This document shows, piece by piece, positions 2,604-24,164 of a DNA stretch of 25,060 nucleotides. Position numbers and translations under genes: made by a program. The notes under the pieces are model-generated. The model had not been told where the DNA came from, did not search any database, and saw only the letters and a program-made list of their open reading frames with translations. The stretch lies in contig CALEPA010000116.1 of assembly GCA_937910355.1 (NCBI GenBank), positions 1 to 25,060 of the forward strand, in the 5' to 3' direction. Source of the DNA: an uncultured Fidelibacterota bacterium. GTDB lineage: Bacteria > Fidelibacterota > Marinisomatia > Marinisomatales > TCS55. Position 1 is the first letter of the stretch. Each line of letters opens with the position of its first letter.

Positions 2604-4061
2604 TTATCTGGTTAATATCATCTCCATATTTTTTACAAAATATTTTTTACCAGGTGTATCGGATCTGTTGGAAAATTCCATATGGCATATATATATTCCT
2701 GATGACACGGACCGTCCATAGTCATTTGTTCCGTCCCAAATAACATGATGAGTTCCCGCCTCTTTAACTGCATTTTCAAGTAATTTTATTTTTTTGCCAG
2801 AAAGATTAAAGACCTTTAATGTGACATGACCGCTTTGAGGAAGTTCGTAATTGATGGCTGTAATCGGATTAAATGGATTAGGATAATTCTGTTGTAACTC
2901 AATGTATTTAGGATTAGTTATCACAACTTCGATAGTTTTTGAATAATTAAACGTACCATCCAAATTAATTTGCTTCAATCGATAGTAATAGGTACCAGAC
3001 CTTAACTTTTTGTCAGCAAAATTATAGTTATGGGGTTCTTCTGATGTTCCGAATCCTTTAATAAAAGATATCTTTGAAAACGTATTCTCAGGACTCTTTC
3101 TCTCAATTTCAAATCCCAAATTGTTCGTTTCCGTAACCGTACGCCAGGTTAAGAATACATTATTGTTTCTGACTTTGAAATCAAAAGAAGAAAGCTCGAC
3201 AGGAAGAGCTACAACCCTATCTAATCGAGTGAAAATTCTGGCGTTGGTAAAATTATCATTTGATTCCCCGGTATGACTGGCAACCCTTACAATTAATCCC
3301 AGATTTTTGGCTAACCAATTGTAATTTATTATTCGAGATTTTTTTGTTCGTATTGGAACGCCGTCCAGAGTAATCTGTTCATTCATAAATACATATGACT
3401 TCATTCTTAAACAATTAAATATGCCCGATGGTATTGTTACTTTTCCCCATGCATCAATTATTGAAAAGGCACTATCATTAACTGTTAAGGTGAATACATG
3501 CGTATTTCCTCCAATGGTAGTATCCTTTGATATACTGAAAATTGAGGTAGTTATCCATGAATCCAAATATTGAGTGGGTAAGGATTGTAATATGACATTT
3601 GGGGGAGCGAATTGGGCTGACCCAGATAAATATGGAGAGACAAATCCTGTTCCGAGAATTAGGACATGTGCCTGTCCAATATTTTGATAAAAATATACAT
3701 CACCTTTAATTTGGGGAAAAATATCGCTGTAGATCATATCAAGCAGTCCACCGCTGTATTTAATAACCCAGTTTCCATCTGGAAAATCTGAAGCAAATGG
3801 AGTGGATTCCAGAGGGACAACCTGCGAAGAAAGTTCAGAACCCGATATTTCCTGAGTAAAATTCCATGTTTGATTTTCTCCCGGATATCCCACGTCAACA
3901 ATGGCATTTTCTGTGGTATCATACTGGCTGATCATGGTCGTGCCAATTCTCGATGGTAATTCATTTTCGTTGATGACGATTTGTCCCAAACCGGGAATCG
4001 TAATTGCGAAAAAAGAAAATATTATGATAAAAATTGCGAGTTTTTTTGTGTTTTGGTTCAT
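2604..4061 (-). CDS. Secreted protein carrying a type IX secretion system (T9SS) C-terminal sorting domain
   Basis: It has an N-terminal signal peptide (MNQNTKKLAIFIIIFSFFAITIPG). The last ~90 aa (QNYPNPFNPITAINYELPQSGHVTLKVFNLSGKKIKLL...AGTHHVIWDGTNDYGRSVSSGIYIC) fit the Por_Secre_tail/TIGR04183 pattern. Confidence 0.7.
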   Translation of the reverse strand: MNQNTKKLAIFIIIFSFFAITIPGLGQIVINENELPSRIGTTMISQYDTTENAIVDVGYPGENQTWNFTQEISGSELSSQVVPLESTPFASDFPDGNWVIKYSGGLLDMIYSDIFPQIKGDVYFYQNIGQAHVLILGTGFVSPYLSGSAQFAPPNVILQSLPTQYLDSWITTSIFSISKDTTIGGNTHVFTLTVNDSAFSIIDAWGKVTIPSGIFNCLRMKSYVFMNEQITLDGVPIRTKKSRIINYNWLAKNLGLIVRVASHTGESNDNFTNARIFTRLDRVVALPVELSSFDFKVRNNNVFLTWRTVTETNNLGFEIERKSPENTFSKISFIKGFGTSEEPHNYNFADKKLRSGTYYYRLKQINLDGTFNYSKTIEVVITNPKYIELQQNYPNPFNPITAINYELPQSGHVTLKVFNLSGKKIKLLENAVKEAGTHHVIWDGTNDYGRSVSSGIYICHMEFSNRSDTPGKKYFVKNMEMILTR

Positions 4062-4215: not shown

Positions 4216-5229
4216 TCAGTGAGCTACCGCAAAAGTTTTTGTATTAATGGAAAGTTTTGAATGTTTATTTTTATTCTTCTGTTCACTTAGCCATTCATAT
4301 GTTTTTACAATGCCAGTCTGTAAATTTGTCTTCGGAATCCATCTTAATGTTTTACGAATTTTTTCAATATTTAGAACTCTTCTTCGAATATTGTCAATAT
4401 CTCGCCTGTCAATATGTACTATTTTTGTGTGATTACCACATGTATCAATGATTATTTTTGCCAGATCATTGATATATGTTTCTCTGCCGGAACCCACATT
4501 AAAAACTTCGCCAATGGCTTTTGGTGAATGGGCGGCCAAGAGAGTGGCTTCAACAACATCCTCCACATAAGTGAAATCCCTTGTTTGATCTCCATCTCCG
4601 TGAATGTGGATATCCTTTTCCTCTATTGCATCGTTTAAAAATCTCGAAATAACGCCACAATAGGGATTCTCAGGGTTTTGTTTAATCCCATACACATTGG
4701 AGTATCTGACAATCGAAATTGGCAAATTATAAGTTTCGTAAAATGCGAAACAATAGTTTTCACCGGTTAGCTTGCTTGCTGCATAAGGATTTAGAATGTT
4801 TGTCCGGTCTATCTCATTAATTGGCAGATATAATGGGTTTCCATAAATTGAGGCGGAAGAGGAGAAAACAACTCTTTCGATGTTATGCTTTCTGGCTGAC
4901 ATGAGGATATTAAACATTCCACCTGCATTTACATTGAAATCAAGCTTCGGAGATTTGGTGGAAACAATGATATTTCTAACCGCAAGATTAAAGACAATAT
5001 CTACTTTACAAACTAATTGATCAACAAGTTTCTCATCTTCCACTGACCCTTTTATGAAAGTTATTTGATCAAGACAATCAATATTGTCTAAGTCTCCAGT
5101 AAACAAATTGTCCAAAACGATAACATTCGCTTCTTCTTTTACAAGTTGGCTTACGAGATTAGAACCAATAAAACCAGCTCCCCCTGCGACGAGCACATTC
5201 TTATTTAAGAATCTCATTTCATCCCTCAT
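4216..5229 (-). CDS. NAD-dependent sugar-nucleotide epimerase/dehydratase (extended SDR family)
   Basis: It has a Rossmann motif, VLVAGGAGFIGSNLV, and a catalytic YxxxK (YAASK). Its 337-aa length is typical for UDP-sugar 4-epimerase-like enzymes. Confidence 0.8.
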   Translation of the reverse strand: MRDEMRFLNKNVLVAGGAGFIGSNLVSQLVKEEANVIVLDNLFTGDLDNIDCLDQITFIKGSVEDEKLVDQLVCKVDIVFNLAVRNIIVSTKSPKLDFNVNAGGMFNILMSARKHNIERVVFSSSASIYGNPLYLPINEIDRTNILNPYAASKLTGENYCFAFYETYNLPISIVRYSNVYGIKQNPENPYCGVISRFLNDAIEEKDIHIHGDGDQTRDFTYVEDVVEATLLAAHSPKAIGEVFNVGSGRETYINDLAKIIIDTCGNHTKIVHIDRRDIDNIRRRVLNIEKIRKTLRWIPKTNLQTGIVKTYEWLSEQKNKNKHSKLSINTKTFAVAH

Positions 5230-5248: not shown

Positions 5249-6439
5249 TTAGTAAGAATTTTTTAATAGCAAGACCATAGGAATTGTATACAAGATTATT
5301 TTTATATCTAACATCAAATTCCAGTTTTCAGCATATCGAATATCATATCTCATTGCTTCGTCATAATTCACAGGTGTACACCGAAGATGAATTTTTGATA
5401 ACCCTGTAATTCCTGGTAAAACTTGCAGTCGCTTATAATACCACAATTGATATTTCTCTATCTCGTATATTGGGTGAGGTCTGGGGCCTACTAAACTCAT
5501 ATCACCTTTTAAAACATTCCATAACTGCGGAAGTTCGTCTAAGCTTGTTTTTCTTAAGATTTTTCCTGCCCAGGTAATTCGGGCGCTAATTTGTTTTTTG
5601 TATTTTTCCACCAAGTTCGTTTTCTTTATTGTTTCGCGTCCTTTCCCCAACAGGGTGTCAATATATTGTTTGTGGAGAGAATTGGAGTGACTTACTCTTA
5701 ATGTTCTAAATTTATATAAAATAAAAGTAGTGCCTTGATGGCCAATTCTTTCCTGTTTAAAAAGTATTGGGCCCGGAGAACTTATTTTTATCAATAGAAA
5801 AATTAATAAAAATAAGGGGGAAAAAAGTATCAAACCTACAATGGATCCAATTATATCTATTAAACGCTTTAGTAAAAATTGAATATACAAACTACTATCA
5901 GAGATATCTTCCAATAGGCTTATTCCAATTGTATTGTAAGCAATCACACCTATTCCCATTTGATATCCTTGAACTAAATATTTTTGCTTAAACGACAAAT
6001 CTTTTAAGAAATTAGTTTTAACTTCTATTGTTTTTTTTTGAATATTTGGTTTTTGGATAGAATTATCTAACGAATAAAAATCGTCGGCTGAGTTTGAGAC
6101 TTGAAAATCTAAATTTTTTACATTGATTTTTTCTTTAATTATTACTTTACTGAACTTTTTAATTGCAAGTTTAGCTTGCGCTTTGTTAGTATTTGCTAAA
6201 AGAATAAATATATTGTTGTTACCGACATAAAGTGTATCTGTCTTTCTAATTTGATGAGAAATTAAATTTCCAATTGTATTTAGTAACATTGCACTATTAG
6301 AATTATTTAGACTTCCATTGTTCCCTTGTATTCGAACAATTGAATAATGATGATTAAATCTTTCCAACCTATTTTGTTCAATATTCAGCCTTTCAATAAA
6401 GTAAGAATGGTCGTGAATTTTATCTATATTTGCAAACAT
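5249..6439 (-). CDS. Polyprenyl-phosphate sugar-1-phosphate transferase (initiating 'bacterial sugar transferase', PglC/WbaP C-terminal type) with an extra ~190-aa N-terminal cytoplasmic domain
   Basis: The C-terminal ~200 aa has one TM helix followed by ...PGPILFKQERIG..G..F..YKFRTL...SLDELPQLWNVLKGDMSLVGPRP..., the PF02397 hallmark. The N-terminal domain is unusual and is discussed in the findings. Confidence 0.8.
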   Translation of the reverse strand: MFANIDKIHDHSYFIERLNIEQNRLERFNHHYSIVRIQGNNGSLNNSNSAMLLNTIGNLISHQIRKTDTLYVGNNNIFILLANTNKAQAKLAIKKFSKVIIKEKINVKNLDFQVSNSADDFYSLDNSIQKPNIQKKTIEVKTNFLKDLSFKQKYLVQGYQMGIGVIAYNTIGISLLEDISDSSLYIQFLLKRLIDIIGSIVGLILFSPLFLLIFLLIKISSPGPILFKQERIGHQGTTFILYKFRTLRVSHSNSLHKQYIDTLLGKGRETIKKTNLVEKYKKQISARITWAGKILRKTSLDELPQLWNVLKGDMSLVGPRPHPIYEIEKYQLWYYKRLQVLPGITGLSKIHLRCTPVNYDEAMRYDIRYAENWNLMLDIKIILYTIPMVLLLKNSY

Positions 6440-6535: not shown

Positions 6536-8959
6536 TTAATTGAAATAAATCTTTAAACCGACATTAGGTAAACGGGGCAAAGAATATCTTTTTTCTACAA
6601 TTGCATTGCCGTATTGATCTATGGAATAATCATGAAAATATAGAACATTTTTGTGGTTAAAAAGATTAATAACTTCTGCAAAAAATAAAAATTTACCCCA
6701 CTTTTTTTTAAATTCAGTGCTTATCCGTAAGTCAAATGTTATATACGGAGGATATTTTGCGGAATTTATGGTTCCTTTTTCAAATTCAAGTGTATTCTTA
6801 TTAAATTTTAGAGGGGTATATGAAAAGCCGCTTCCATAAATGTACTTAAAGCTTATTTTGATGCCCTTGTATAAATTCCAGCTATTAGCGAAAATGATTG
6901 TGTGCCTTTGATCATTATATCTATAATAATAAGGTATATTAATTCTTTTTTCTTTAGCAATAAGATAGCTGTAACTGATCAAAATATCTGTGAATGAAAA
7001 AGAATAAGAAAATTGGGTGTCAAATCCCTTAGAGAAACCTTTGGAATCGTTTTCTTTCGAAGAAATTATTCTGCCTGATATATTTTGTTTAGAAATAAGA
7101 TTGCTGTAATCCTTATAATAAATAGTTGTATTTAATATCAGCCTATTTTTTATATTCCAGTTTATTCCTAATATATAATGCATTGCTTTCTCATCTTTTG
7201 TGTTTTTTCTCGTCGGATATGGGTAATAGAGTTCATCAAAATAGGGAGACTGATAATAAACACCCCAGGAAAAAGAACTTTTCAGTTTATTTTTAATTGG
7301 GATTGAGATAGAAACTCGAGGGGATATATATAATCTTTTGTTCAATTCAAAATAATCAAGCCGTAATCCGAAATTTGAGAAAATTGATGAAGATATATGA
7401 AGATTGTGTTGTAAAAATCCTGATAATTTATAATAGGTTATATCGTTTTTGTGATTATTTATTTGTTGCTCGGTTGTATCTATCTTGAATAAAATATCAT
7501 CTATTTTTGAATCAAGATTAATACTTTTTTGGACAAAATTATTGTAATAATTATAATATTTACCTAAAATAATGGATATGCCGGATTCTATCTCTTGATT
7601 TTCTTGAATCTGTGTTAAAATTGAATTTTTAATTTGGAAATAAAATAATTTTGTAGAATTTGAATAATTGTTATTAAAGCACAATTTTTGAGTGCCAAGC
7701 TTTTCGTTTTTATGATCAAATAATACTCCATTTGATATGCTTTTTTTGTTTGAGAATTGAGTTTCTTTTTCATGCGAAAAAGATATGATATTTTTCATAT
7801 ATGATTTGGATGAAATCAAATATCTATGTTTTATACCAAACATATCGACTGAAGAATAATAGGACAAATTGGAAATTGTGGAATCTCGCCGAACCAAATA
7901 ATAGTCAGGCATTTTGCTTTTAAAGCCTTTAATTTTCGTGTGCATTGGCTCGGAATATTGATCTTTTGCGTTCAGATAGAAAAGCGATAAATTATGCCCA
8001 GGCGATATATTCAAATTCATTGTTCCGATAAAATCATAATAATCAGGAATTCCCTCGGATATAAATCTTTTTTTGCTTAAATTGAATCGATCTAAAATAT
8101 CCATCGCAAAGTGAAGATTGCTCCTATTTAAACTCAACATATAAGAAGCTTTTTTACCCAAAGGACCATTAATCAGAAGGTTTAAAAATGTTGGACTGAT
8201 TTCTATTAAAGATTTCATGTTTTTGGGGTTACCCTGCTTTAGGTGAATGTCCGACACGGAGGATAATTTATCGCCAAATTTGGCCGGGAATCCTCCATTG
8301 TAAAAGATCACCTTTTCTACAACATTAATATTGAAATAACTTATACTTGCAGTTGGCATCTCTTTTAAGTGAAATGGGTTGTGTATTTCCACGCCATTTA
8401 AATAGTATAAATTTTCATTACTTAATCCTCCCCTTGCAAAAAACTTACTTGATTTATTATTGTTTTCATTAACCCCAGGCAGCATTTGAATAGAACGATT
8501 TATATCATTTAGTGTGAATGGAACTTCTTTCATATAATTGCTATTTAGGATAGATCTACTTTTTTCCAGCTTTATTTTAGGATATTTATCCTTATTGGCC
8601 TTTTCTGAGAATACGATAACATTGGGCATTCGAAGTGCCCAAGGCACCAATTCGACATTCAGATAACAGGAATCTTGTGAATAGGTCGTTAAGTCTAAAT
8701 AAAATTTTTGTTTTTTATAACCAACCCGTGAGAATTCTATCTGGTACACTCCCTGAGGTAGTTCAATTTCAAAGCGGCCATTATTATCAGACATATCACC
8801 TTTTCTTTGGTCTATAACGCTTACATTTACAAGGCTTAATTTTTCATTTGTTTGTTTGTCCTTTACATAACCCCATACAACAATAAGATTTTTTGCAAGT
8901 CCAAGGGAAACTAATGAAGAAGTGAAAAACAAACAAATGAAAATTCTAAATATTTTCAT
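6536..8959 (-). CDS. TonB-dependent-receptor-like outer membrane protein (CarboxypepD_reg-like N-domain + plug + beta-barrel)
   Basis: It has a signal peptide. It has an N-terminal carboxypeptidase-regulatory-like beta-sandwich (VWGYVKD...NVSVID...DNNGRFEIELPQGVYQIEFSRVGYK). It has plug-like motifs (LPGV..., FARGG...NLYYLNGVEI, GGFPAKFGDKLSSVSDIHLKQG). The C-terminal half is long and rich in Tyr/Asn, consistent with a barrel. The gene overlaps the upstream Wzc gene by 4 bp. Confidence 0.55.
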   Translation of the reverse strand: MKIFRIFICLFFTSSLVSLGLAKNLIVVWGYVKDKQTNEKLSLVNVSVIDQRKGDMSDNNGRFEIELPQGVYQIEFSRVGYKKQKFYLDLTTYSQDSCYLNVELVPWALRMPNVIVFSEKANKDKYPKIKLEKSRSILNSNYMKEVPFTLNDINRSIQMLPGVNENNNKSSKFFARGGLSNENLYYLNGVEIHNPFHLKEMPTASISYFNINVVEKVIFYNGGFPAKFGDKLSSVSDIHLKQGNPKNMKSLIEISPTFLNLLINGPLGKKASYMLSLNRSNLHFAMDILDRFNLSKKRFISEGIPDYYDFIGTMNLNISPGHNLSLFYLNAKDQYSEPMHTKIKGFKSKMPDYYLVRRDSTISNLSYYSSVDMFGIKHRYLISSKSYMKNIISFSHEKETQFSNKKSISNGVLFDHKNEKLGTQKLCFNNNYSNSTKLFYFQIKNSILTQIQENQEIESGISIILGKYYNYYNNFVQKSINLDSKIDDILFKIDTTEQQINNHKNDITYYKLSGFLQHNLHISSSIFSNFGLRLDYFELNKRLYISPRVSISIPIKNKLKSSFSWGVYYQSPYFDELYYPYPTRKNTKDEKAMHYILGINWNIKNRLILNTTIYYKDYSNLISKQNISGRIISSKENDSKGFSKGFDTQFSYSFSFTDILISYSYLIAKEKRINIPYYYRYNDQRHTIIFANSWNLYKGIKISFKYIYGSGFSYTPLKFNKNTLEFEKGTINSAKYPPYITFDLRISTEFKKKWGKFLFFAEVINLFNHKNVLYFHDYSIDQYGNAIVEKRYSLPRLPNVGLKIYFN

Positions 8960-11355
8960 TTCCTGCTTAACCAGGACCGCAATAATTTTAATTTCTTCTT
9001 TTCGCGGTTATGATCGTCGTCGTAATAGTAATATTTATAATTATAATTATATCCATATGCTTTGGGTTTTTCGGCTTGATTATAAGCAAAACCAAGCAAT
9101 TTTGAACCGGTTCTCTCCAAATTTTGAATTGTTTTTTGAATGTCGTCAATTTTTGTTTGCTCTGCCTTGATTGTCAAGACTACTGCATCACAAATTGATG
9201 CTAACAAAATAGCATCGGAAACAGCTATAATTGGGGGAGAATCAAATATCAGAAGATCATAATTTTGTGTCATACTATTAATAATTTTTTTGAATATTTG
9301 CGAAGATAAAACATATGACGGGTTAGGAGGAATTTTCCCCGACGTGAATAAATGAAGATTCGGAATGCCGGTTTTTCGAATAATATCTTCAGTTGATTCA
9401 TAGATATATTGATCTATAAAATTAAGCAATTCGGATTTTGATCTGTTTTCATTAGTTATTATTTTTGATGTTAAAGTTATATGATTTTTTATTATTTTTT
9501 TATTAATAACCATATTTAGGTCTTTATTATTCTCAAAATTATCAATATCCGTATCTTTCATGACTTCATTTAAAGAAATGATGCTATTTACTAATCCGGG
9601 TTCTCGTTTTTGATTAAACAATAGATGCAACATAGGTCTTCTGAAGTCAGCATCAATTATTAGTGTTTTGATTCCTGACTGAGCCGCGGCTATAGAGAGA
9701 TTTGCGGCAATTGTCGATTTTCCTTCAGATGGATTGGAACTTGTAATTAAAATCTTTTTAAGCGGTTTATCCAGACTTGAAAATTGAATATTCGTTTTAA
9801 GAGTGTGAAAAGACTCTGAAATAGGAGATTTGGGATTAAGAATAGTAATTAGTGTTTTATCAAACTTGGTTTTATTTTTCTCCCCATTGTTCTTTTGAAT
9901 ATCTTTATTTCGAATAAATGGTATAGTAGCTAAAACACTTCTATTTGTTAAACTTTCTAGCTCCTCTGCAGATTTTACACTATCATTCATAAATTCAGTT
10001 ACAAAAATCCATGTGCCGCCTAATAACATTCCAACAAATAGGCCCAATATAATGTTTAATGCTTTTCTTGGTTCAATGGGTGAACCTGGTTTTCTTGCGG
10101 GGTCTATCACTCGAATATTCCCAATTTTTTGTGCTTGGGCTATTTTCATTTCTTCATATTTTTGTAATAACATGGTATATAATTGTTCATTTACATTTTT
10201 ATTGCGAATAAGGCGTGATAATTCTAATTCTTTTTCGGGTACCGATTTTAAGCTAAAATTATAATTATCTATAATTTTATGTAATGCAGCTTCTTGTGCT
10301 TTATATGTTTGAATTTCAATATCTAATGAAATTGTTTCTTCCAAAAATTTTTCTATCTGAGATATAGGATCAATAATATTTTGACCCTGTGCAAGCTTCA
10401 TGGTTTCTCGTTTTAAGTTTTCTTTTGTTTGTTCAATCTTATCCCTTAATTGAATCATTTTGGGATGATTCTTGGCATAGTTTTTAACTTTTAGCGTGGT
10501 ATATTGTATTTCCAAATCGACAAGACTTTCTTTTAATTTTTGAACCCAGGGACTGGTTACTTGTGTAATATTAGGAACTAGATCCTTCCTCTGCTTCTTG
10601 ATTTTTTCTTTAATATATTTTAGGCGACTTTCAGTAGATTCTCTGTTTGATTTCGTCTCATTTAAAAGGACCTCGGCGTTTGTAATTCGTTGAAAAATCT
10701 GAATAGATTCCTGATCTGGCGATATAGAAATCTTGTTTTTCTCCTTATAGTTCTTCAAAGCAATTTCAGCATTATCCAATTTTGATTTATATCTTTCCAA
10801 TTGTCCCTTAATCATTGTAATCGCATTGCTTGTTTCTTCTCTTTTTATTAATAAACTTCGTTTTTCAAGAACGTTAGTAATAGTATTTCCGATCAACATT
10901 GCAAGCTCCGGATCGGAAGCTTTTACTTTAATTTCAATAATATCTGAACCTTGTACAGGTTTTGCCGATATGTTTCCGTGAATCTTAGAGCTGATATATC
11001 TGATTTTATTGAAATTATTGGGTATTTCTTTAAAGTATGAAATTTTGCTACTATATCGTTTTGATAATTCTTTTGCCACATCATCAGCCAAAGATTTGCT
11101 CTTGATCTCTTCAATTTGATTTGCAATAAATGATTTATCATTTCTGAAAGAAAATGAATTGTTTACGGCAAACTGGCTCGCTTGCCGATCGAATAGAATT
11201 AATGTCGAGGATTGATAAATCGGGGTTGCGGTGCTATTGTAGTAAATAATGGGCAATAAAACTCCCAATAGACCGGCAATTAAAATCCATCTGTTATTTA
11301 GGATAATTTGAATATAATTATTCAAATTCATTTCATCATTTTTTTTGTTCTTCAT
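8956..11355 (-). CDS. wzc: Polysaccharide co-polymerase / tyrosine autokinase (Wzc/EpsB/GumC family, PCP-2a)
   Basis: It has an N-terminal TM segment plus a Wzz-like region, a long coiled-coil periplasmic segment and a second TM. The C-terminal BY-kinase carries Walker A (SSNPSEGKSTIAANL), A' (LIIDADFRRP) and B (LLIFDSPP). The tail is Tyr-rich: YGYNYNYKYYYY. Confidence 0.85.
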   Translation of the reverse strand: MKNKKNDEMNLNNYIQIILNNRWILIAGLLGVLLPIIYYNSTATPIYQSSTLILFDRQASQFAVNNSFSFRNDKSFIANQIEEIKSKSLADDVAKELSKRYSSKISYFKEIPNNFNKIRYISSKIHGNISAKPVQGSDIIEIKVKASDPELAMLIGNTITNVLEKRSLLIKREETSNAITMIKGQLERYKSKLDNAEIALKNYKEKNKISISPDQESIQIFQRITNAEVLLNETKSNRESTESRLKYIKEKIKKQRKDLVPNITQVTSPWVQKLKESLVDLEIQYTTLKVKNYAKNHPKMIQLRDKIEQTKENLKRETMKLAQGQNIIDPISQIEKFLEETISLDIEIQTYKAQEAALHKIIDNYNFSLKSVPEKELELSRLIRNKNVNEQLYTMLLQKYEEMKIAQAQKIGNIRVIDPARKPGSPIEPRKALNIILGLFVGMLLGGTWIFVTEFMNDSVKSAEELESLTNRSVLATIPFIRNKDIQKNNGEKNKTKFDKTLITILNPKSPISESFHTLKTNIQFSSLDKPLKKILITSSNPSEGKSTIAANLSIAAAQSGIKTLIIDADFRRPMLHLLFNQKREPGLVNSIISLNEVMKDTDIDNFENNKDLNMVINKKIIKNHITLTSKIITNENRSKSELLNFIDQYIYESTEDIIRKTGIPNLHLFTSGKIPPNPSYVLSSQIFKKIINSMTQNYDLLIFDSPPIIAVSDAILLASICDAVVLTIKAEQTKIDDIQKTIQNLERTGSKLLGFAYNQAEKPKAYGYNYNYKYYYYDDDHNREKKKLKLLRSWLSRK

Positions 11356-11358: not shown

Positions 11359-11925
11359 CTAACCACTTATTCTTGAGTACCAATACCATACTTGTATAAT
11401 AATTGCTATTTGGGAAATGACCTTTATTATAGTTTGCCATTTGTACCAGGTGTTTTGTTTTACCATAACAACATCCCCTGGCTTCAAAACAGGCAATGAA
11501 TTTGAATTATTATTATTAAGATAGCTTTTAAGATTAACACGCATTATATTTTTTTCATATGGGTTTTCTTTGTGATTAGATGCTGTTTGTGGTTTTGAAA
11601 ATGTGGGAACTTCTTTTCTTGTTAAAGTGATGTTCTTAAGATTTGCGAATGCAGTTGGGCCCCCCGCTCTTGAAATTAACTCTAAAACATTTGTTCCGTC
11701 TGGCACTAAATATTCTCCTGGACGGGCCACTTCTCCCCATACATGTACTTGGATCATGAGTCTTTCCCCGGGGCCAATTTGGTATTGATCTAGCTGAGAT
11801 TGCTTTTCCTGGGGATATGTATTACTGAATGATAGCATGAGAATGACTAAAAAAATGATGGAATCAATAGTTCTCCATTTTGTTTCTGAGGCTTGCCTGG
11901 TCAGTCCCAATCTCAAAAATCTCAT
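11359..11925 (-). CDS. wza: Polysaccharide export outer-membrane protein (Wza/KpsD family, short form)
   Basis: It has a signal peptide, then ...PGERLMIQVHVWGEVARPGEYLVPDGTNVLELISRAGGPT..., and ...LKPGDVVMV at the C-terminus, which match Poly_export plus an SLBB domain. Its stop is 3 bp from the wzc start. Confidence 0.75.
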   Translation of the reverse strand: MRFLRLGLTRQASETKWRTIDSIIFLVILMLSFSNTYPQEKQSQLDQYQIGPGERLMIQVHVWGEVARPGEYLVPDGTNVLELISRAGGPTAFANLKNITLTRKEVPTFSKPQTASNHKENPYEKNIMRVNLKSYLNNNNSNSLPVLKPGDVVMVKQNTWYKWQTIIKVISQIAIIIQVWYWYSRISG

Positions 11926-11944: not shown

Positions 11945-12322
11945 TCAGTTTAAATTATTACCATTAAGAACAATTAAATCCTTTAGGAATTTGTACTGAT
12001 ACAAATCAATGGGCTTTAAAAGACGCAACAAAATTCCTTCCTCCATAATGCGTTTGCTTTTTTCAAAGTCATCTTTCTCAGCAATATAAATAATCGGAAT
12101 ACGAGGGCGACTGCGCCTAATTATTTGAATCAACTCTTCTCCGGATAGCCCTTCAAGGTATTGATCTACAATGAGAAAATCATAATCATTATCAAGTATT
12201 TCTAAAATCACCTTGTGACCATGTCGGATAGTTTCAATTCTTAGGCTCTCTTTCTCGAAATATTTGACAATGTCAATTTCTAATTGCCGATCACACGTTG
12301 CAAGTAAAATTGATTTGGTCAT
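11945..12322 (-). CDS. Stand-alone CheY-like receiver (REC) domain protein, probably atypical or degenerate
   Basis: At 125 aa it has the (beta/alpha)5 receiver length. It conserves the phospho-acceptor-like Asp (FLIVDQ) and the Lys (LLKP). The N-terminal acidic pair reads LLATCD rather than the usual DD, and the Thr/Ser position is not obvious. It is the first gene of the polysaccharide operon. Confidence 0.5.
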   Translation of the reverse strand: MTKSILLATCDRQLEIDIVKYFEKESLRIETIRHGHKVILEILDNDYDFLIVDQYLEGLSGEELIQIIRRSRPRIPIIYIAEKDDFEKSKRIMEEGILLRLLKPIDLYQYKFLKDLIVLNGNNLN

Positions 12323-12530: not shown

Positions 12531-13190
12531 TTGAAACATTTGCTTAACAAGTGATGCTTGTAACTGGAGGCATTGGAAAAGATTGTTTCAATCGGAGAAG
12601 AATAATATTTAATACCATCCAGTTTTACAAATCGTGACTAAAGATTAAAATGCAGAAATCAACCTATTAAAACAGCGATTTTGAAGTAGTCGTTATTGCC
12701 AGTTTTTTTGCACCCTACATCTCATTTGAATTCAGATCAGGTTATAGGAAATCAGTTTAACGGCCAGGTGCAGGGTTATCTTGTTCAACTCGATGCTTGA
12801 CAGGTCCGACAATCCGAGGAAATTTTCTTTGTCAAACCAGAATTCAACCTCATCGATTTGAATATGTTTCGATGGCCTCTTCCCCGGTTTTGCCATCATC
12901 ATTGGTGAGGCAGCCGTAAAGTGTCCGTACTCTGTCCGCAATCTCATCTACCATAATGAGTCGTACAGCTTCGCAATAATGGCAGATTTTGGTTTTGACG
13001 GAGGTCACTCCCAATGTGGCTGTTAACCGCCGAAATGACTCCAACGGGATTTTGTCTATTATTAGAATATTCTATCGATAGCTTCTTAATAGATTTCAGG
13101 GGTAATAAATCCCGCTTCAAAATCGCTGTAAATGTAATACAATTCTGGTATTGACATTCCGGGATAAATAAGGTGTTGTTATCTTCCGGG

Positions 13191-13210
13191 AGACTAAGAG
13201 AGTCTTTTTA
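13191..13210 (+). terminator. Short hairpin followed by a T-run (AGACT-aagag-AGTCT-TTTTT), intrinsic-terminator-like, reading on the plus strand
   Basis: It is visible in the sequence. The stem is only 5 bp. There is a perfect TTGACA about 40 bp upstream (13151-13156) but no convincing -10 element. There is no annotated plus-strand gene here. Confidence 0.15.
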
Positions 13211-13256
13211 ATTCTAACAATCGGACGCTTTATTTACGGATGGGATTTCGTAAAAT

Positions 13257-14603
13257 TCATTTTACATTTACGCCCACCTCATACTTTTTCATCCGGTACA
13301 GGAGCACATGCCTGGGAATCCCCAGAAATTCTGCGGCTCTGGTCTTGTTCCCATGGGATTTCTGCAGTGCGTTTTCGATGGCTTGTTTTTCAATTTCAGG
13401 GAGTGTCTCTCGGGGAACAGCAGAAAAAGCGCGCGTCCCTTTACCGGTCCGCACCTCCTGTGCCAATAAATTTGAACTAATCCTTTGATCCGGACTGAGT
13501 ACAATTACGCGCTCAATCACATTTTCCAGTTCCCGCACATTTCCGGGCCAATCGTACGCTTCCAGAAAGGTCAATACGTCCGGATCTATTTTATATTTCA
13601 CTCCGTTGCCGTGTTTCTGGATGAAGTGATGGACGAGCGGCACAATGTCCTCCCGTCTCTCCCGCAACGGCGGTATTTCAATTGGGAGCACGCGCAGACG
13701 ATAGTACAAATCCTCACGAAATGAGCCCTCAGCGACCATTTGGTCCAGATTTTTATTGGTCGCCGCCACAATACGCACATCCACAGAAATGGGCCTGTTT
13801 TCTCCAACCCGTTCAATCTCCCGCTCCTGCAGCACGCGAAGCAGTTTGGCCTGCAAATCAACCTTCAAATCCCCAATCTCATCCAAAAACAACGTCCCGC
13901 CATTTGCCATTTCAAATTTTCCCTGCCGGTCCTTCATCGCTCCCGTAAACGCGCCTTTCACATGCCCGAATAATTCACTTTCTATTAATTGCTCCGGGAT
14001 AGACGGGCAATTCACCGTCACAAAAGGACCGTTTTTTCGGGGACTATTCACATGAATGGCTCGCGCAAGCAGCTCTTTTCCCGTACCGCTTTCGCCGAAA
14101 ATAAACACCGTGGAGTCACTGAGGGCGACACGAGTCGCCATTTGAATCAGCGTCTCCATCACCGGACTTCTTCCCACCAGACGTTCAAATCCGAATTTTG
14201 TGGAAACCTCCATTTTTAACCGGCGATTTTCCTGCCTGAGCTGCCTGAATTGAAGCGCTTTCTCGATGACAAACCGCATGGCTTCCTTTCCAAAAGGTTT
14301 GATCAGGTAATCATCCGCCCCGATTTTTGAAGCTTCCACGGCGCCGTCCACAGAACCATATGCCGTAATAATTATAAAAATAATATTTTTATCAATTTTT
14401 CGAACTTCCCGCAGAACTTCCATGCCGGTCATTCCCGGCATATTTATGTCTGATAAAATCACCTCATGGTCACCGGATTTAAACTTTCGCAGTCCTTCCT
14501 CACCGGAAAGAGCGATTTCCACCCGAAATCCCATTTGTTTGAGTTGGTGGGCAATCACACGACAAAGGCTTTCGTCATCATCGATAATTAAAATTCGAGT
14601 CAT
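13257..14603 (-). CDS. Sigma54-dependent response regulator (NtrC/Fis family bacterial enhancer-binding protein: REC + AAA+ + Fis-type HTH)
   Basis: The REC domain has DDDES and the phospho-acceptor ILSDINMPGM. The AAA+ domain has Walker A GESGTGKE, the sigma54-contact GAFTGA loop and Walker B LFLDEIGDL. The C-terminus has a Fis-type HTH (TRAAEFLGIPRHVLLYRMKKY). No histidine kinase gene is adjacent. Confidence 0.9.
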   Translation of the reverse strand: MTRILIIDDDESLCRVIAHQLKQMGFRVEIALSGEEGLRKFKSGDHEVILSDINMPGMTGMEVLREVRKIDKNIIFIIITAYGSVDGAVEASKIGADDYLIKPFGKEAMRFVIEKALQFRQLRQENRRLKMEVSTKFGFERLVGRSPVMETLIQMATRVALSDSTVFIFGESGTGKELLARAIHVNSPRKNGPFVTVNCPSIPEQLIESELFGHVKGAFTGAMKDRQGKFEMANGGTLFLDEIGDLKVDLQAKLLRVLQEREIERVGENRPISVDVRIVAATNKNLDQMVAEGSFREDLYYRLRVLPIEIPPLRERREDIVPLVHHFIQKHGNGVKYKIDPDVLTFLEAYDWPGNVRELENVIERVIVLSPDQRISSNLLAQEVRTGKGTRAFSAVPRETLPEIEKQAIENALQKSHGNKTRAAEFLGIPRHVLLYRMKKYEVGVNVK

Positions 14604-14710
14604 TTTTTCTTCCTCTGATTTTTAACCATATTAACAAAATTACACCTTACGGGGTGTGCTAAATTAAATTTGTTTTTCATTCCTAAATTCGTGCCAGCGG
14701 TACAACGTTT

Positions 14711-17700
14711 TTACCCGCTGTTTCCGCTGGTACGCGCCATTTTTAAAAAATAAGAGAGTAAGATTCTCTGCTGCTCCTGCGTGAGCGCTTCTTCATCCAA
14801 TTTTAAAATTTTCTCCATATCGCGAAGTGCCAGCAGCACCTCTTCGGGAATGTCCTTCATCGTTTCCGGAAGGTAGAGCAAAAACTGAACTGCCGTGAGC
14901 AGAAACTGCCGCATGCTGTCGTCCACAATATTGCGCAGCATGTCATTAATCTGGGTTGCCAGCCGGGTTACGCGCCCCCGGGAAACGCCGCTGCCGCGCA
15001 ATTGAAATGCGGCTTCACGCGTGAACAGCGATTTAACCGCCTTTGCCAGCTCGATGAAACTTCTCACCTGTTCGGAAATAGGCTTCTCAAGCATCTCCCA
15101 CATCTTTTTCCTGCTCTCACCAATAATACGCCGTTTGTCAAATTCTTCCTGAAATGCCCTGCGCCACTTTTCAGACAGCCGATTCGCAGGAAAAGCGGCA
15201 TCCGCTTCCCAGTTGAAAATATCCCGCTGTAAAAGGACTGCCAAATCAGGACGTAGGTACGGAAGCAGTTCATCGATTTTTTTTCGGCAGGGAATTTGCC
15301 CTTTTGTTAAAACGCCGCTTTTGCGCAGCAGCTCTTCCTGAAACAGAGGGATAAAATCTTTTAAAATCGATTGTTCTTCCTTCAAAGCTTTTAGTGCTGA
15401 ATTACCCGGAGGAAACGCATCTTCGATTCGTTTTAAAAAAATCAGATCCGGATCGTGATATAAACGCAGTGTGTTTAAAATATCGCGAACCGGCAGGTGC
15501 GGTAAAATATGCAGCCGGAATTGCTCTGTCCGCTTCGCACCCTCCATTTCCAGAAATTGATACAAAGACAAGAACAAACCTGTCGTAAATTGGTTTACTC
15601 CCAGCAAAAATGTCTGCGCCTTGTTATGTCCGATTGCCCGAAGCATGGTGCCGTGTGTGGCCAGGGGCAGTGTATTAGACAGGCGTTCCAGAATTTCACG
15701 GCTCCTGTCCAGGACCGGCTCTCTGCTGGGACGCACGGTCGGACGATCCCGCAGGGGCAAAAGTGTGCGGGACAGAAAATAAGACACCACATGGATGCCG
15801 GTCATGTCTTCGGGCCGGCCATAAACAATCTGCGTAAAATTGGATTTAACATAATCCAAAAATTCCACGAATATTTCATCATCTTCACGGCGAACCACAG
15901 AGCTCAGCTTTTGCCAGACGGCCGGATCACTCTCGGGAAGCTGCGAAGCTTTTACAAAGACGCGGTTCCAGTAGTCAACCTGTTTGGTACGGATGTTGTG
16001 AAATACATCGGCCAGCTCTCCCGCGGGGAGGTTTCGCAGCCGTTCCATCACATTGGACTGGAATGTACGGAAATCACTGTGACTCAAAATGCCCATCAAT
16101 GGAGAACGCGCTCGCCGAAAGGAACGCAATTCCAGGGCATCCATTTTTGATTGAAACGCTTCGTTTGCAAACACTTCATCCCGGAACACCGGACTTCCGC
16201 CGGTGGGATCGTAGTACCCCCCCTGACGCTGCGGCGATTCCCCTGATCCGAATTTGATCCGAATTTTGCCCAACAAGTCTTTCTTCCACATCCAGCGATT
16301 AAGCAGATCGCGGGCATCCTGATACAATGAATACGCTTTAAGCTGTCCCACCTGCTGGCTGAGATCCGAACCGGCAATGAAAAATTCACCCATAATCTCA
16401 CAGAATCGATCTTGCGGCCGCTGCCTTAATTTTCGGCTTTTTTCGGCATATTCCCAGATTTCATCCAAAAATTCAGGAATTTTCTGAATGGCCTCCAACT
16501 CCTCAAAGAGCGGCACAATTCGAATATCCGGTAAATTGAGCTCAGGATTTTTGTGTAACACCCGTTCCTTTTCTTCACAAAGTTTCCGGTAAAGTGTCAA
16601 AATGGCATGCGGATTGCCGGCCATGCTGACCTGAATAGCCAGCACCAATCCCTCGTACCCGTACAAACTTCCCAGAACATTTAATTCAACAAGATTATAA
16701 ACCGTAGTGTTAACCGTAAATTGATCTTTATCTAAAATGATTTTTTGGTGAATTCTGGGCGTCAGGTAAAACCGTTTTAAATAATTTTTGTAGAAGCTCA
16801 TAAAGAAAAGCCATTTTTCAGATTGCAGTTTTTCCCGATTGCGAAGCGTCACGTCTTTCGCAATCCGGATAAGCGTCTGATTGATCTCAAACAACCGCCT
16901 CATTTCAGACGAACGCTGCCGGCGGTATTGCTGCATCCGGCGTTCATTCCGGTCGTTATGTTTCCAGAGTGTTTTCAGCGGATCGCGCAGAAGCCTCAAT
17001 TTTCGTAAAAAACGCTTCAATCTTCCGATGGCATATTCCAGCGGAATCGTTTTTCGGTATTTTTCTTCCAGACGGCTGGTTAACTGAGTGATTTTTTGCA
17101 GAATTTTTCGGAAATTTTCGATCTGTTTCTCAATGGATCCAATCGCCTGCAAGGCACGTTCTTCATCCTGTGTTAATAATTGTTCATTTTGAAAGAGTTT
17201 AATCTGCAGCGCCAGCGCCCGAATATTGGCAATTAAAGGGCCTGAGATCAACGTGTGCCCTTGACCGCTGGGCCGGGTGCTGCCGTCCCAATCACCCCAG
17301 AACGACAGGGCGATGTGTTCACTTTCACCGGTAAAAATCTCGCCATAATTTTCTGCAAGGTGCAGCGCTTCAAAATCGCATACAACTTCCTCAGCTTCCA
17401 TCTGAGAAGAGATCGGCACATTTTCTCCCACGAATTCGTACACCAATTCCCGAAAGAGTTTTGAAACGGGAACAGATTCATATATTTCAGGAAGAACGCT
17501 GTTTTTTGCCATCTGTATGAAAAGCTGCTCCACACGAATCGAGTACATCTGCGTCGGATGAACCGTCCGGTCAAACAGGCGCTTCGTAAATTCGTCTCGT
17601 CGACTTTCAAGATCTTCGCCGTGCAGTTCCTGAAGAAACTTCCGGAACAGGGTTTCCCTGAAAACAGGATGTTTCTGTTTTAAACGAACCGCTTCCTTTA

Positions 17701-20359
17701 ATATCAACAAGTCCTGCATCTTATTTTCAAGAAACTGCCAACGCCGGGGCAGAAAATAGCTTAAGAAATCATCCAACACATTCGCTTGTTTCAATTCATC
17801 ATTTGTCCGGCGGGGAAGTGTTTGATAAAACCTCTTCTCCGCAAGTTTTTGGACAGTTTCATATAATTGAACTGTTTTTTGACGGAAAATATCCGACGGC
17901 TTTTGAGTGGAAAAAGTCCTGACCGCGTCTTTTAATAAATCTGTTCGAGGCAGGCGATGGTAATAATAGTTTTCGGCCTGTTTTCTAATCTGTTCGGTTA
18001 ATTCTTCCATCAGGCGCCGAATTTTTAGGGGAATTTCCTTTATCTCCAATTCACCCCCCAGGGTCAAACGGAAAGTCCGATTCGCCAGGTTAAAGCCCTC
18101 CACCGTACGGGAAAAATTAGTCATCGGAATAAGCCCGATTCCCTGATGCGCCAGTTGAAAGGCCAGCTTTTCAATTTGAACCACAGCCGGCATTTTTTGA
18201 ACCGCCAATTGCGGATACATGGCCCCCTGCGGCGGCAAAAAACGTATCTTGTAAGGATTGATTTCATCCGGCAAAGCCTCAAAAGCCTCCTGAATCGCAC
18301 AGGACCGCTGCCACAAAATCCAATCCCGCATCCGCCAAAAAAAGGACACTTTTTCCTGCCCCCTGCGATAAAAAAGGGTGCTCATGAGAATGGCCATTAA
18401 ATTGGGTCGAATATGGGACAGCCTCGCCTGAAATTTTTGGCGTGAGGCCGGATCCGGAATTTCGCAAACGGCCAATCTTGCACCCGCCTTGCAATCGGTT
18501 TTAGAAATCGACTGAAGCGTAATCAAATTCCGCAGGTGCGATTCCCGAAGCTTACCCTTTCCGAGAGCCGTCACGGCAATCTTTTTCAGGCTTCTGACCG
18601 GCACTTTTTCGGCCCTGATTTCCGGAGATTCGATCACCACGTCGGAATAAGACAAATCATCGATCACACGAATTCCACGCTGCAGACAATAAATCAGGAT
18701 CTTCTCCACATCTTGCTCGTCCCAGATTTTTCCGGTGGCATTCTGCGGATTATTCCAGATTACAATGCCTGTGTTTCGCCAATCGGAATCGGCCGCCAAC
18801 TTTTGTTCCAGCACCGAAATAAATCGATCCGGATTAATTTGTAAATCCTCGTTTAACGGCACGGCCGTCACATGCGGAAAAGCATCCCCGACTGTCCAGC
18901 TAAAATCGGGGATGATGACGTCCTGAATCCTCCACGCTTCTGCCATTGTGCTGAGCCCTGTCCGGGCCGACCCGCTGACGGGCACCAGGTGAGCCGGATC
19001 ATATTCCGGATGAAGATTTTGAAAGACCGATAAAAAGGAGCGCGTCAGGGTCTTCTGCCATTCTGAATCGTTTAGATTTGTAAAAAACTGAAGCAGTATT
19101 TCAGCCTGCTGTTTTCCTGAAAAAGGGTCCGGCAAGGCTCTGTTTAGCTGTTTCCCCCGAAAAAAGGAAACCGTTTTTTCAAGTCCCACCCCCAGGATTT
19201 CGGATGCTTTTGAAAAATGTCCAACCATTTGCTGAACATCCGCCGCAATTTCCTCAACAGTCTCCGCCGCGCCCCGCAAAACGCCGGGAAACCTTCCGGC
19301 CACTGCAAAATTTTCATACTCCGAAAAATCATCAGCCGGACTCGGGATGTCAAATCGGCGTTTATTTTGGCCCCGCCGGCTCAAATCGAATGTGCCGTCC
19401 TCATTCAGGAAGAAATCCAACAGTTTAATTTCACTTGCGGGAGGAGTCCCCATCTTCTTAAAATGCCTGCGGTTGAAGGCTTCGATGATTTCAGCCGGTC
19501 CCAGTAAAAAGGCAAGGCTGGAATATTTCAATTCGGGATGGATAATCTCCGGCGACAGAATTCGAACCATTCGCGTCTTCGTCCCGCGGACTGCGGAGAG
19601 ACTTTCGGAAGATGCCGTCTGATTCACTTCAATCAAAAAGATGCGTTTTTCCAAAAGCAATCGACTTAAACGTCTGCGATGACTTTCTTCAAATTTTTTG
19701 TGCAGCACCATGAATCCGACGGACTTTGAACCTTCGGACGCAAAAAAGCTTTCTAATTTCTGAATTTGAGAAGAACCCTCCGTGTCAAAAAATAACACTT
19801 CTCCCGGATATCTTTCATGCACTTCCGGGACTTCCGGAGCGCCCACAACCAGAAGCGTTTTTCGAGGGGTTTCTGCCTGCTCAAAAAACATCTGCAAAAG
19901 TATTTTTAGAGCCTGCCAACGCCCGCCGGAAGCCATAGCAAATTCCGGGGCGGTGTTATTTTTCGAGAAATTGTATCGTACCGGTGTTTTGGGGCTGTCA
20001 TTGAAAAAAACGGCCAGTTTACGAGTGAGTGTCCCCGGATTTTTAGGCGAGAATCCCCCGGCCGGCGCGTACGAGACGGATTTGCGGGATGTCTCGAACA
20101 GAAGCCGGAAATAGGATTGAATATCCGCATCGTCAAGCGATTGGAAAAACACTTTTTCATCGAAATCCCCGGCAGTCAGGCCGGAAAAATCGTCTCCCGA
20201 AAGAATCGCGTTGTACAGGCGATTCAACGCCTCATCCTGAACCGGATTGCCGATATGAAAATTCACTCGGCTTTTGGGATCCACGCCCGCTTCCGCCGTC
20301 AGTTGACTAATTTCTCCGACCAGCGGCGGAGAGCTTTTTTTAAGTTTCAAAAATGTCAT
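14711..20359 (-). CDS. Giant (1882 aa) multidomain protein: two tandem PLP-dependent aminotransferase-fold (class I/II) units fused to a C-terminal phosphoenolpyruvate-carboxylase (PEPC)-fold module with non-canonical catalytic motifs
   Basis: It is a single uninterrupted ORF. Aminotransferase unit A spans about aa 30-330 (NFHIGNPV, YAPAGG...LTRKLA, GGRWQALKILLQ...TLLVVGAPEVPEV) and has no Schiff-base Lys. Aminotransferase unit B spans about aa 400-800 (VSGSARTGL...DVIIPDFSW, IWNNPQNATG matching xNPxNPTG, IDDLSY, and SISKTDCKAGARLA matching SxSK..GxR). PEPC-like motifs run from about aa 900 to the C-terminus: DRTVHPTQ (cf. TAHPTE), SFWGDWDGSTRP (cf. WMGGDRDGNP), QVSMAG (cf. VISMA), IVPLFEELE (cf. 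APLFETLDDL), MGEFFIAGSD (cf. MIGYSDS), KFGSGESPQRQGG (cf. FHGRGGSIGRGG), LRAIGHNKAQTFLLG (cf. LRAIPWIFAWTQNRL), and a terminal ...SGNSG (cf. ...MRNTG). The ORF call is confident. The domain reading is from memory of family motifs only. Confidence 0.6.
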   Translation of the reverse strand: MTFLKLKKSSPPLVGEISQLTAEAGVDPKSRVNFHIGNPVQDEALNRLYNAILSGDDFSGLTAGDFDEKVFFQSLDDADIQSYFRLLFETSRKSVSYAPAGGFSPKNPGTLTRKLAVFFNDSPKTPVRYNFSKNNTAPEFAMASGGRWQALKILLQMFFEQAETPRKTLLVVGAPEVPEVHERYPGEVLFFDTEGSSQIQKLESFFASEGSKSVGFMVLHKKFEESHRRRLSRLLLEKRIFLIEVNQTASSESLSAVRGTKTRMVRILSPEIIHPELKYSSLAFLLGPAEIIEAFNRRHFKKMGTPPASEIKLLDFFLNEDGTFDLSRRGQNKRRFDIPSPADDFSEYENFAVAGRFPGVLRGAAETVEEIAADVQQMVGHFSKASEILGVGLEKTVSFFRGKQLNRALPDPFSGKQQAEILLQFFTNLNDSEWQKTLTRSFLSVFQNLHPEYDPAHLVPVSGSARTGLSTMAEAWRIQDVIIPDFSWTVGDAFPHVTAVPLNEDLQINPDRFISVLEQKLAADSDWRNTGIVIWNNPQNATGKIWDEQDVEKILIYCLQRGIRVIDDLSYSDVVIESPEIRAEKVPVRSLKKIAVTALGKGKLRESHLRNLITLQSISKTDCKAGARLAVCEIPDPASRQKFQARLSHIRPNLMAILMSTLFYRRGQEKVSFFWRMRDWILWQRSCAIQEAFEALPDEINPYKIRFLPPQGAMYPQLAVQKMPAVVQIEKLAFQLAHQGIGLIPMTNFSRTVEGFNLANRTFRLTLGGELEIKEIPLKIRRLMEELTEQIRKQAENYYYHRLPRTDLLKDAVRTFSTQKPSDIFRQKTVQLYETVQKLAEKRFYQTLPRRTNDELKQANVLDDFLSYFLPRRWQFLENKMQDLLILKEAVRLKQKHPVFRETLFRKFLQELHGEDLESRRDEFTKRLFDRTVHPTQMYSIRVEQLFIQMAKNSVLPEIYESVPVSKLFRELVYEFVGENVPISSQMEAEEVVCDFEALHLAENYGEIFTGESEHIALSFWGDWDGSTRPSGQGHTLISGPLIANIRALALQIKLFQNEQLLTQDEERALQAIGSIEKQIENFRKILQKITQLTSRLEEKYRKTIPLEYAIGRLKRFLRKLRLLRDPLKTLWKHNDRNERRMQQYRRQRSSEMRRLFEINQTLIRIAKDVTLRNREKLQSEKWLFFMSFYKNYLKRFYLTPRIHQKIILDKDQFTVNTTVYNLVELNVLGSLYGYEGLVLAIQVSMAGNPHAILTLYRKLCEEKERVLHKNPELNLPDIRIVPLFEELEAIQKIPEFLDEIWEYAEKSRKLRQRPQDRFCEIMGEFFIAGSDLSQQVGQLKAYSLYQDARDLLNRWMWKKDLLGKIRIKFGSGESPQRQGGYYDPTGGSPVFRDEVFANEAFQSKMDALELRSFRRARSPLMGILSHSDFRTFQSNVMERLRNLPAGELADVFHNIRTKQVDYWNRVFVKASQLPESDPAVWQKLSSVVRREDDEIFVEFLDYVKSNFTQIVYGRPEDMTGIHVVSYFLSRTLLPLRDRPTVRPSREPVLDRSREILERLSNTLPLATHGTMLRAIGHNKAQTFLLGVNQFTTGLFLSLYQFLEMEGAKRTEQFRLHILPHLPVRDILNTLRLYHDPDLIFLKRIEDAFPPGNSALKALKEEQSILKDFIPLFQEELLRKSGVLTKGQIPCRKKIDELLPYLRPDLAVLLQRDIFNWEADAAFPANRLSEKWRRAFQEEFDKRRIIGESRKKMWEMLEKPISEQVRSFIELAKAVKSLFTREAAFQLRGSGVSRGRVTRLATQINDMLRNIVDDSMRQFLLTAVQFLLYLPETMKDIPEEVLLALRDMEKILKLDEEALTQEQQRILLSYFLKMARTSGNSG

Positions 20360-20383
20360 TTAAGGGTGCATTTACGTCTATCA

Positions 20384-21565: not shown

Positions 21566-21575
21566 TTTTTGCGTA

Positions 21576-22250: not shown

Positions 22251-22259
22251 AGGATTAAA

Positions 22260-24140: not shown

Positions 24141-24164
24141 ATCCTGGGGCCAAAATCCAGGAAC

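Follow-up and report, generated by a model that had tools for sequence, protein, structure and literature searches.

Why should an enzyme that starts the synthesis of an exopolysaccharide (EPS) carry, in front of its catalytic domain, the remains of an enzyme that makes a second messenger? The question is raised by a gene on a 25,060-nucleotide stretch of DNA from an uncultured Fidelibacterota bacterium (assembly GCA_937910355.1, contig CALEPA010000116.1), which is called the window here. The gene combines the intact core of a small monotopic phosphoglycosyl transferase (PGT) with an N-terminal domain (N-domain) that has the GGDEF fold of diguanylate cyclases, has lost the active site and, across its whole family, retains the residues of the inhibitory site (I-site) that binds cyclic di-GMP (c-di-GMP); the gene lies in an EPS locus. 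Taken together with structure models and the analogy to known receptors, this indicates that the gene probably encodes the initiating PGT of a Wza/Wzc-type EPS pathway with a fused I-site receptor domain for c-di-GMP.

The catalytic half

The gene and the main parts of its product are as follows.

5249..6439, minus strand: degenerate-GGDEF/small monotopic PGT fusion gene; 396 aa, the longest open reading frame possible
6086..6430, minus strand: truncated GGDEF-fold domain, predicted to be catalytically dead, residues 4-118 (family profile, hhalign, AlphaFold2, Foldseek)
5897..6085, minus strand: linker, residues 119-181, containing the hydrophobic stretch GYQMGIGVIAYNTIGISLL; predicted local distance difference test (pLDDT) 26-36, poorly conserved, length variable in the alignment
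5780..5896, minus strand: helix-break-helix, residues 182-220, predicted to form the re-entrant membrane helix typical of monotopic PGTs; Ser207-Pro208 conserved
5270..5869, minus strand: Bac_transf catalytic domain, PglC/WbaP-like, residues 191-390 (Pfam, WbaP and PglC alignments, Foldseek)
5534..5539, minus strand: catalytic Asp-Glu dyad D301-E302 in SLDELPQL, invariant in the family

An initial annotation, made from the DNA sequence, had called the product a PglC-type PGT, and the C-terminal half bears this out. It matches the Pfam family Bac_transf (PF02397) with E=9.7e-61 and 204.9 bits against a cut-off of 27, over profile positions 1-178 of 179, and aligns with WbaP (E=3.8e-35) and PglC (E=6.5e-32). 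A Foldseek search of the PDB with the C-terminal half of the structure model retrieves PglC (E=8e-13) and WbaP. The catalytic dyad D301-E302 is intact, and both it and the VGPRP motif at residues 317-321 are invariant in 35 homologues and aligned with WbaP. AlphaFold2 (AF2) predicts two helices, residues 182-205 and 207-220, interrupted at S207-P208; the conservation of P208 is at least 90%. As far as its sequence can tell, the protein is a bona fide monotopic PGT, and the adjoining gene for a sugar-nucleotide epimerase/dehydratase hints that its substrate is a modified hexose.

In the PglC-type topology the membrane helix is re-entrant and both of its flanks are cytoplasmic. Since the N-domain directly precedes the predicted re-entrant helix, it would be cytoplasmic, located on the same side as the active site and beside it.

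The Bac_transf domain of the family carries an insertion of ~25 residues relative to the Pfam profile (residues ~250-285, about nt 5585-5692), in which H256 is invariant and Y259 near-invariant ('HxxYIxxLL'). The insertion was considered as a docking site that had co-evolved with the GGDEF domain, and this was rejected because relatives without that domain have it as well, among them P0112, whose N-terminus is of the CoA_binding_3 type.

The fold of the N-terminal domain

Taken alone, the window protein matches the Pfam GGDEF family (PF00990) below the threshold, with 16.7 bits against a cut-off of 23.8 (E=0.0066), so that by the Pfam rule it is a non-member, and the score of the single sequence is suggestive, not proof. 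The match is co-linear, with residues 8-111 on profile positions 9-120 of 161. Further weak matches are to TIGR00254, SiaD, PRK09894 and the Cas10 palm family Csm1_B; the last was rejected as a link to CRISPR, as it reflects the common palm fold. When the N-domain alone was the query, a word-indexed search gave no relatives.

The family provides much stronger signals. A search with the full-length protein returned four orthologues at 65-98% identity and ~30 full-length homologues at 34-42%, many of which carry precomputed PF00990 and PF02397 assignments. Pfam GGDEF is reached at E<=0.01 by 16 of the 35 full-length homologues themselves (best E=1.5e-13). A profile of the N-domain family, built from 30 sequences, finds solved GGDEF domains in the PDB at E=1.4e-15, and hhalign aligns it with the diguanylate cyclase WspR at 97.2% probability (E=3.5e-11). 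The AF2 model made with the full alignment has the order beta-alpha-beta-alpha-beta-beta-alpha-beta, and the N-domain modelled by itself reaches a pLDDT of 84.3 and a predicted template modelling score (pTM) of 0.79. The best 50 Foldseek matches of this model in the PDB are all GGDEF domains, with template modelling scores of 0.53-0.71, and include PelD (4eu0). With family profiles and models in agreement, the GGDEF fold, initially proposed for the first ~110 residues, can be considered settled, and no other fold was found for residues ~4-118.

The domain is shortened and its active site has decayed. It ends after the fourth core strand, without about the last 40 of the 161 GGDEF profile positions. 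The initial annotation had threaded three segments onto the fold. Its second and third segments are essentially right: the second aligns NSAMLLNTIGNLISH over GDEALRQVAGAIRE of WspR, and the third RKTD..GNNNI-FILLANT over RSSD..GGEEF-AMVLPGT. The first was only approximate; the beta1-alpha2 loop is 5 residues shorter and has none of the catalytic D/N/D residues, and the DxFKxxND/GH loop as a whole is unconserved. The replacement of GG(D/E)EF by GNNNI had been read correctly, and its location is:

6209..6223, minus strand: G73-N-N-N-I77, decayed GG(D/E)EF active-site hairpin, aligned with WspR GGEEF 251-255

With the catalytic motif replaced and the substrate loop shortened, the sequence indicates that the window protein is not a diguanylate cyclase.

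The retained I-site

What has been kept of the GGDEF domain is its allosteric site, represented by three elements.

6236..6247, minus strand: R65-K-T-D68, RxxD primary I-site motif, aligned with WspR R242xxD245; invariant in 35/35 homologues
6359..6370, minus strand: R24-L-E-R27 at the end of helix 1; by alignment R27 corresponds to WspR R198 and R24 to WspR R195
6155..6157, minus strand: K95 in helix 3, aligned with WspR K273

R65 and D68 had been named as the pair whose conservation in orthologues should be checked. They and R27 are the sole invariant columns of the N-domain among the 35 homologues, in a family in which N-domain pairwise identity is ~20%. This invariance is not circular, since the 35 homologues were recruited mainly through the PGT half. 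R27, the counterpart of the second I-site arginine of WspR (R198), is an addition to the residues proposed initially. K95 occupies what we take to be the position of PleD R390.

The position of the RxxD motif at the I-site was correctly recognized, as it coincides with R242xxD245 of WspR. Its spacing of 4 residues from the pseudo-GGDEF motif, in contrast, is particular to the window clade, where it results from a deletion of one residue; elsewhere in the family the spacing is the canonical 5.

A wider census covers 108 copies of the domain fused to a PGT. D68 is conserved in 98% of them, R65 and E21 in 97% each, and R24 and R27 in 95% each, figures that are biased because the copies were taken from profile-ranked matches and the profile itself rewards R and D at these columns. 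RxxD is present in 104 of the 108 copies, every one of the 91 fused proteins has at least one copy with it, and position 95 is K or R in 73 copies (68%). The census is used here for breadth, and the argument from conservation leans on the less biased set of 35 sequences.

The meaning of these residues comes from WspR, for which the sequence used in the alignment is 100% identical to PDB 3i5b/3bre. In its crystal structure, c-di-GMP at the I-site is held by R242 and by R198 of a neighbouring GGDEF domain, and the R242A and R198A proteins both purify nucleotide-free (De et al. 2008, PMC2270323). By alignment, the three residues that are invariant in the family are WspR residues documented to hold c-di-GMP, in a domain whose catalytic half has fully decayed.

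Proposed mechanism and alternatives

We infer c-di-GMP binding, and with it a stoichiometry, a dimerisation and a sign of regulation, along the following lines. The N-domain would be a former diguanylate cyclase that lost catalysis and kept only the allosteric inhibitory site for c-di-GMP. An intercalated c-di-GMP dimer would bind R65 and D68 with the assistance of K95, and R27 (and R24) of a second N-domain would complete the site, by analogy with WspR and PleD. In this way c-di-GMP would cross-link the N-domains or change their orientation next to the membrane-embedded catalytic domain, which in turn would switch sugar-1-phosphate transfer to undecaprenyl phosphate. R27 is strictly conserved and some relatives have two or three copies of the domain, which suggests that c-di-GMP dimers link N-domains of one protomer or of different protomers. 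Activation at high c-di-GMP is the expected outcome by analogy, because all characterised polysaccharide systems under c-di-GMP control are activated by it. The scheme in its complete form, in which c-di-GMP gates lipid-linked initiation in cis, dimers of it bridge R65/D68 and R27 of the other protomer, the resulting dimerisation or oligomerisation activates the enzyme, and the same holds family-wide with one to three sensor copies, is tentative and falls somewhat short of probable.

Several points weigh against a c-di-GMP receptor. Binding of c-di-GMP is itself a prediction from sequence. The N-domain is truncated, unlike those of PelD and PssE, and the deletion of one residue between RxxD and the hairpin in the window clade could alter the geometry of the I-site, as judged from the alignment. 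K or R at position 95 is found in only 68% of copies, and the bias of the 108-copy census has to be discounted. The orientation of the domains in the model is unreliable, with a linker pLDDT below 40. No diguanylate cyclase is encoded in the ~13 kb of the window that can be trusted or in the ~21 kb of the orthologous loci. Furthermore, one protein of the locus bears a sorting signal for type IX secretion, a pathway present in Bacteroidota and related phyla, and c-di-GMP enzymes are few in many Bacteroidota.

The alternative that survives best is a nucleotide-free scaffold. In that case the N-domain would bring two PGT molecules together or recruit a partner, for example the Wzc-like kinase or the receiver of the operon, and RxxD and R27 would be structural or interface relics of an ancestor with a functional I-site. 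Some degenerate GGDEF domains do serve as protein-interaction modules, the domain here is truncated, and a single-domain receiver heads the operon; in another system the PGT EpsZ is regulated by protein-protein contact with the receiver EpsW (PMC12802240). The pattern of conservation argues otherwise. RxxD is dispensable for the GGDEF fold, given that I-site mutants of WspR are folded and highly active (PMC2270323), yet RxxD and R27 are the only invariant positions at ~20% identity and each is aligned to a residue that contacts c-di-GMP. A scaffold is thus considered unlikely.

A second alternative accepts that c-di-GMP binds but reverses its effect, such that cross-linking at the I-site immobilises the enzyme and undecaprenyl phosphate is diverted elsewhere at high c-di-GMP. 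This would preserve the native function of the I-site, which is inhibitory and immobilises domains (PMC2270323), and relatives with 2-3 tandem copies resemble the cross-linking geometries of PleD and WspR. Inhibition is nevertheless quite improbable when set against the characterised EPS machines that c-di-GMP regulates (Bcs, Alg44, PelD, PssE and PgaCD), all of which are activated (PMC8461298; PMC4125290; PMC12802240).

We give very little credence to a different ligand, be it GTP or ATP at the remnant active site, guanosine tetra- or pentaphosphate ((p)ppGpp), cyclic GMP-AMP (cGAMP), or the uridine diphosphate (UDP)-sugar substrate or uridine monophosphate (UMP) product as feedback: some degenerate GGDEF domains bind GTP or ATP, and PDB entries 9g85 and 9g86 contain PleD with ppGpp or pppGpp besides c-di-GMP, but here the active-site half is gone, the motif G[GAS][DE]E[FYL] occurs in 0 of the 108 PGT-fused copies, the shortened DxFKxxND/GH loop is unconserved, and the conserved residues belong to the I-site and not to the active site. 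A c-di-GMP receptor that controls the PGT to which it is fused remains the preferred reading.

Comparison with known systems

Degenerate GGDEF domains with an intact I-site had been cited initially as c-di-GMP receptors that switch on EPS synthesis, and the literature supports this for PelD (PMC8461298) and PssE (PMC4125290). PelD of Pseudomonas aeruginosa is a close parallel to the window domain, being a degenerate GGDEF protein that is EPS-linked and membrane-anchored, as well as a structural match (4eu0). It binds dimeric c-di-GMP through RxxD and a further arginine and thereby exerts post-translational control of EPS production; in addition to R367 and D370, binding needs a third arginine, R402 (PMC8461298), for which K95 is the putative counterpart in the window protein. 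The differences are considerable. PelD is a separate, non-catalytic subunit with four transmembrane (TM) helices, a GAF domain and a complete GGDEF domain, and acts on PelF in a synthase-dependent system, whereas the window domain is truncated, lacks a GAF domain and forms one polypeptide with the initiating PGT, in a Wza/Wzc-type pathway. PssE of Listeria monocytogenes binds two c-di-GMP per protein (PMC4125290). It is also a stand-alone receptor with a complete GGDEF domain in a synthase-type (PssC/PssD) system, and has no PGT fusion. By analogy, the window protein would work like PelD and PssE, yet it belongs to neither of their protein families. The I-site of the active cyclases WspR and PleD has the same fold and residues as that of the window domain, but the latter has neither GG(D/E)EF nor the GTP-binding loop, and its I-site would be a signal input rather than a means of product inhibition.

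On the transferase side, a close likeness is the EpsW-EpsZ pair of Myxococcus xanthus, in which a signalling domain allosterically and post-translationally controls the initiating monotopic PGT of a Wzx/Wzy pathway (PMC12802240). There the regulator is a separate phosphorylated receiver acting on the dimer of a large (WbaP-type) PGT, whereas in the window protein a putative nucleotide sensor is part of the same chain as the PGT, whose core is small and of the PglC type. Small monotopic PGTs can carry fused regulatory domains, receivers included (PMC12802240, citing O'Toole et al. 2021). The PGT half itself shares with PglC and WbaP the Bac_transf domain, the helix-break-helix with Ser-Pro, the Asp-Glu dyad and VGPRP. 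PglC has no N-terminal domain and WbaP has an N-terminal region of four TM helices and a DUF domain; in the window protein, the place is taken by a soluble GGDEF-like domain and a ~60-aa linker.

Distribution and significance of the fusion

A profile search of 1.84 billion representative sequences with the N-domain reached the GGDEF superfamily as a whole (101,830 matches), of which the best 150, together with earlier matches, were dissected. Among these, at least 91 cluster representatives have the domain ahead of a PGT, 76 with one copy, 13 with two and 2 with three. P0121, P0122 and P0126 are among the relatives with two or three tandem degenerate GGDEF copies, and RxxD is kept in nearly every copy. 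To judge from these sequences, the tandem arrangement suggests multivalent binding of c-di-GMP or intramolecular cross-linking. The nearest relatives of the domain outside PGTs are ordinary c-di-GMP proteins with the architectures TPR-GGDEF-GGDEF, GAF-GGDEF and GGDEF-HD-GYP.

Family members occur in a metagenome-assembled genome (MAG) of Acidobacteriota (locus L001; the MAG includes contig CAVXIM010000018.1), in 'bacterium BMS3Abin10' and in a bin with the label Hodarchaeota; assemblies with members include GCA_012975005.1 and GCA_002897755.1. The Hodarchaeota member (P0113, MFX0132630.1) is full-length, at 35% identity, and deposited as 'Candidatus Hodarchaeota archaeon' from an Asgard MAG; it may reflect contamination of the bin or a gene transfer into archaea.

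Five short PGTs (P0009-P0013, 241-250 aa) are 53-58% identical to the catalytic half of the window protein and keep only a remnant of the first N-domain segment (e.g. IFDSETYLHDVPYFHHELCLEMRK) directly before the membrane helix. By their sequences, this looks like secondary loss of the sensor domain.

O'Toole, Imperiali and Allen (PNAS, 2021) are said to have catalogued fusions of monotopic PGTs. A full-text search of the literature found no paper on a GGDEF-PGT fusion or on c-di-GMP acting on a PGT, although that catalogue may list such fusions. The initial suggestion that the fusion had not been described holds to this extent; the fusion is not unique, given the 91 or more representatives, and the architecture is already present in Pfam and Joint Genome Institute (JGI) annotation, where one automatic name, from JGI, is 'glycosyltransferase/GGDEF domain-containing protein'. 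The fusion is undiscussed rather than unseen.

Post-translational control by c-di-GMP is well understood for synthase-dependent polymers, namely cellulose, alginate, Pel, poly-N-acetylglucosamine (PNAG) and the Listeria Pss EPS. How Wzx/Wzy pathways are regulated post-translationally is described as only partly understood (2025 mBio paper, PMC12802240), the known examples being tyrosine phosphorylation of CapM and the action of the receiver EpsW on EpsZ. If the proposed mechanism is true, a second messenger acts at the very step that commits scarce undecaprenyl phosphate to a polymer, and a single polypeptide offers a compact system for allosteric control of a monotopic membrane enzyme. The analysis also defines a minimal module of ~115 aa with only the I-site, for which other proteins could be searched or which could serve as a c-di-GMP-binding part.

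The exopolysaccharide locus

The PGT gene is surrounded by the following genes.

11945-12322, minus strand: single-domain receiver, 125 aa, heading the EPS operon; syntenic in orthologues
11359-11925, minus strand: SLBB exporter, 188 aa, without a Poly_export domain
8956-11355, minus strand: Wzz-GNVR-P-loop Wzc-like protein
6536-8959, minus strand: CarboxypepD_reg, Plug and TonB-dependent-receptor barrel protein, 807 aa; 4-nt overlap with the Wzc-like gene at 8956-8959
4216..5229, minus strand: NAD-dependent sugar-nucleotide epimerase/dehydratase, 20 nt downstream of the PGT gene
2604-4061, minus strand: 485-aa protein with a type IX secretion system (T9SS) C-terminal sorting domain (Por_Secre_tail/FlgD_ig), inside the EPS locus; syntenic in orthologues

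Up to 13.2 kb of the window, the order is receiver, SLBB, Wzc-like protein, barrel, PGT, epimerase, T9SS-signal protein and DUF354. The contigs of the 98% and 86% orthologues keep this order and continue with GT4, oxidoreductase and glycoside hydrolase (GH)-like genes. Around a 39%-identical relative the order is largely kept, with the barrel gene again placed after the Wzc-like gene and before the PGT gene. The barrel may represent an unusual component of EPS export in the outer membrane. The epimerase/dehydratase, likely co-transcribed with the PGT gene, is syntenic in the orthologues and in the 39%-identical relative. An EPS-locus setting extends to relatives at 35-40% identity. More distant members of the family adjoin genes for Poly_export/SLBB proteins, Wzz/GNVR proteins, a ParA-type kinase, BBP2 barrels, AAA_22 ATPases and UDP-sugar enzymes, and one member (P0079) lies outside any obvious EPS locus.

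The receiver at 11945-12322 matches its Pfam profile from position 14, and its N-terminal acidic pair is apparently reduced to one Asp. Because a stand-alone receiver activates the initiating PGT EpsZ in Myxococcus (PMC12802240), the window PGT might, by analogy, have a second, phosphorylation-dependent input through this receiver.

The right-hand 12 kb of the window (13257-25060, with the junction in 12588-13257) is probably a chimeric join or a foreign insertion, as indicated by three observations. The GC content rises from ~0.31 to ~0.46 at ~13 kb, a 99%-identical contig of another assembly stops exactly at window position 13256, and an 87%-identical orthologous contig diverges at 12588 and goes on at low GC with different genes. 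This region encodes a sigma54 response regulator, a 1882-aa open reading frame with only an aminotransferase-like segment, an SPFH protein, a DtxR/FeoA repressor, an Nramp transporter and, at 23706-24140, an IS200-type Y1 transposase. The sigma54 response regulator and the other genes at 13-25 kb were dropped as context of the PGT, the region being probably mis-joined.

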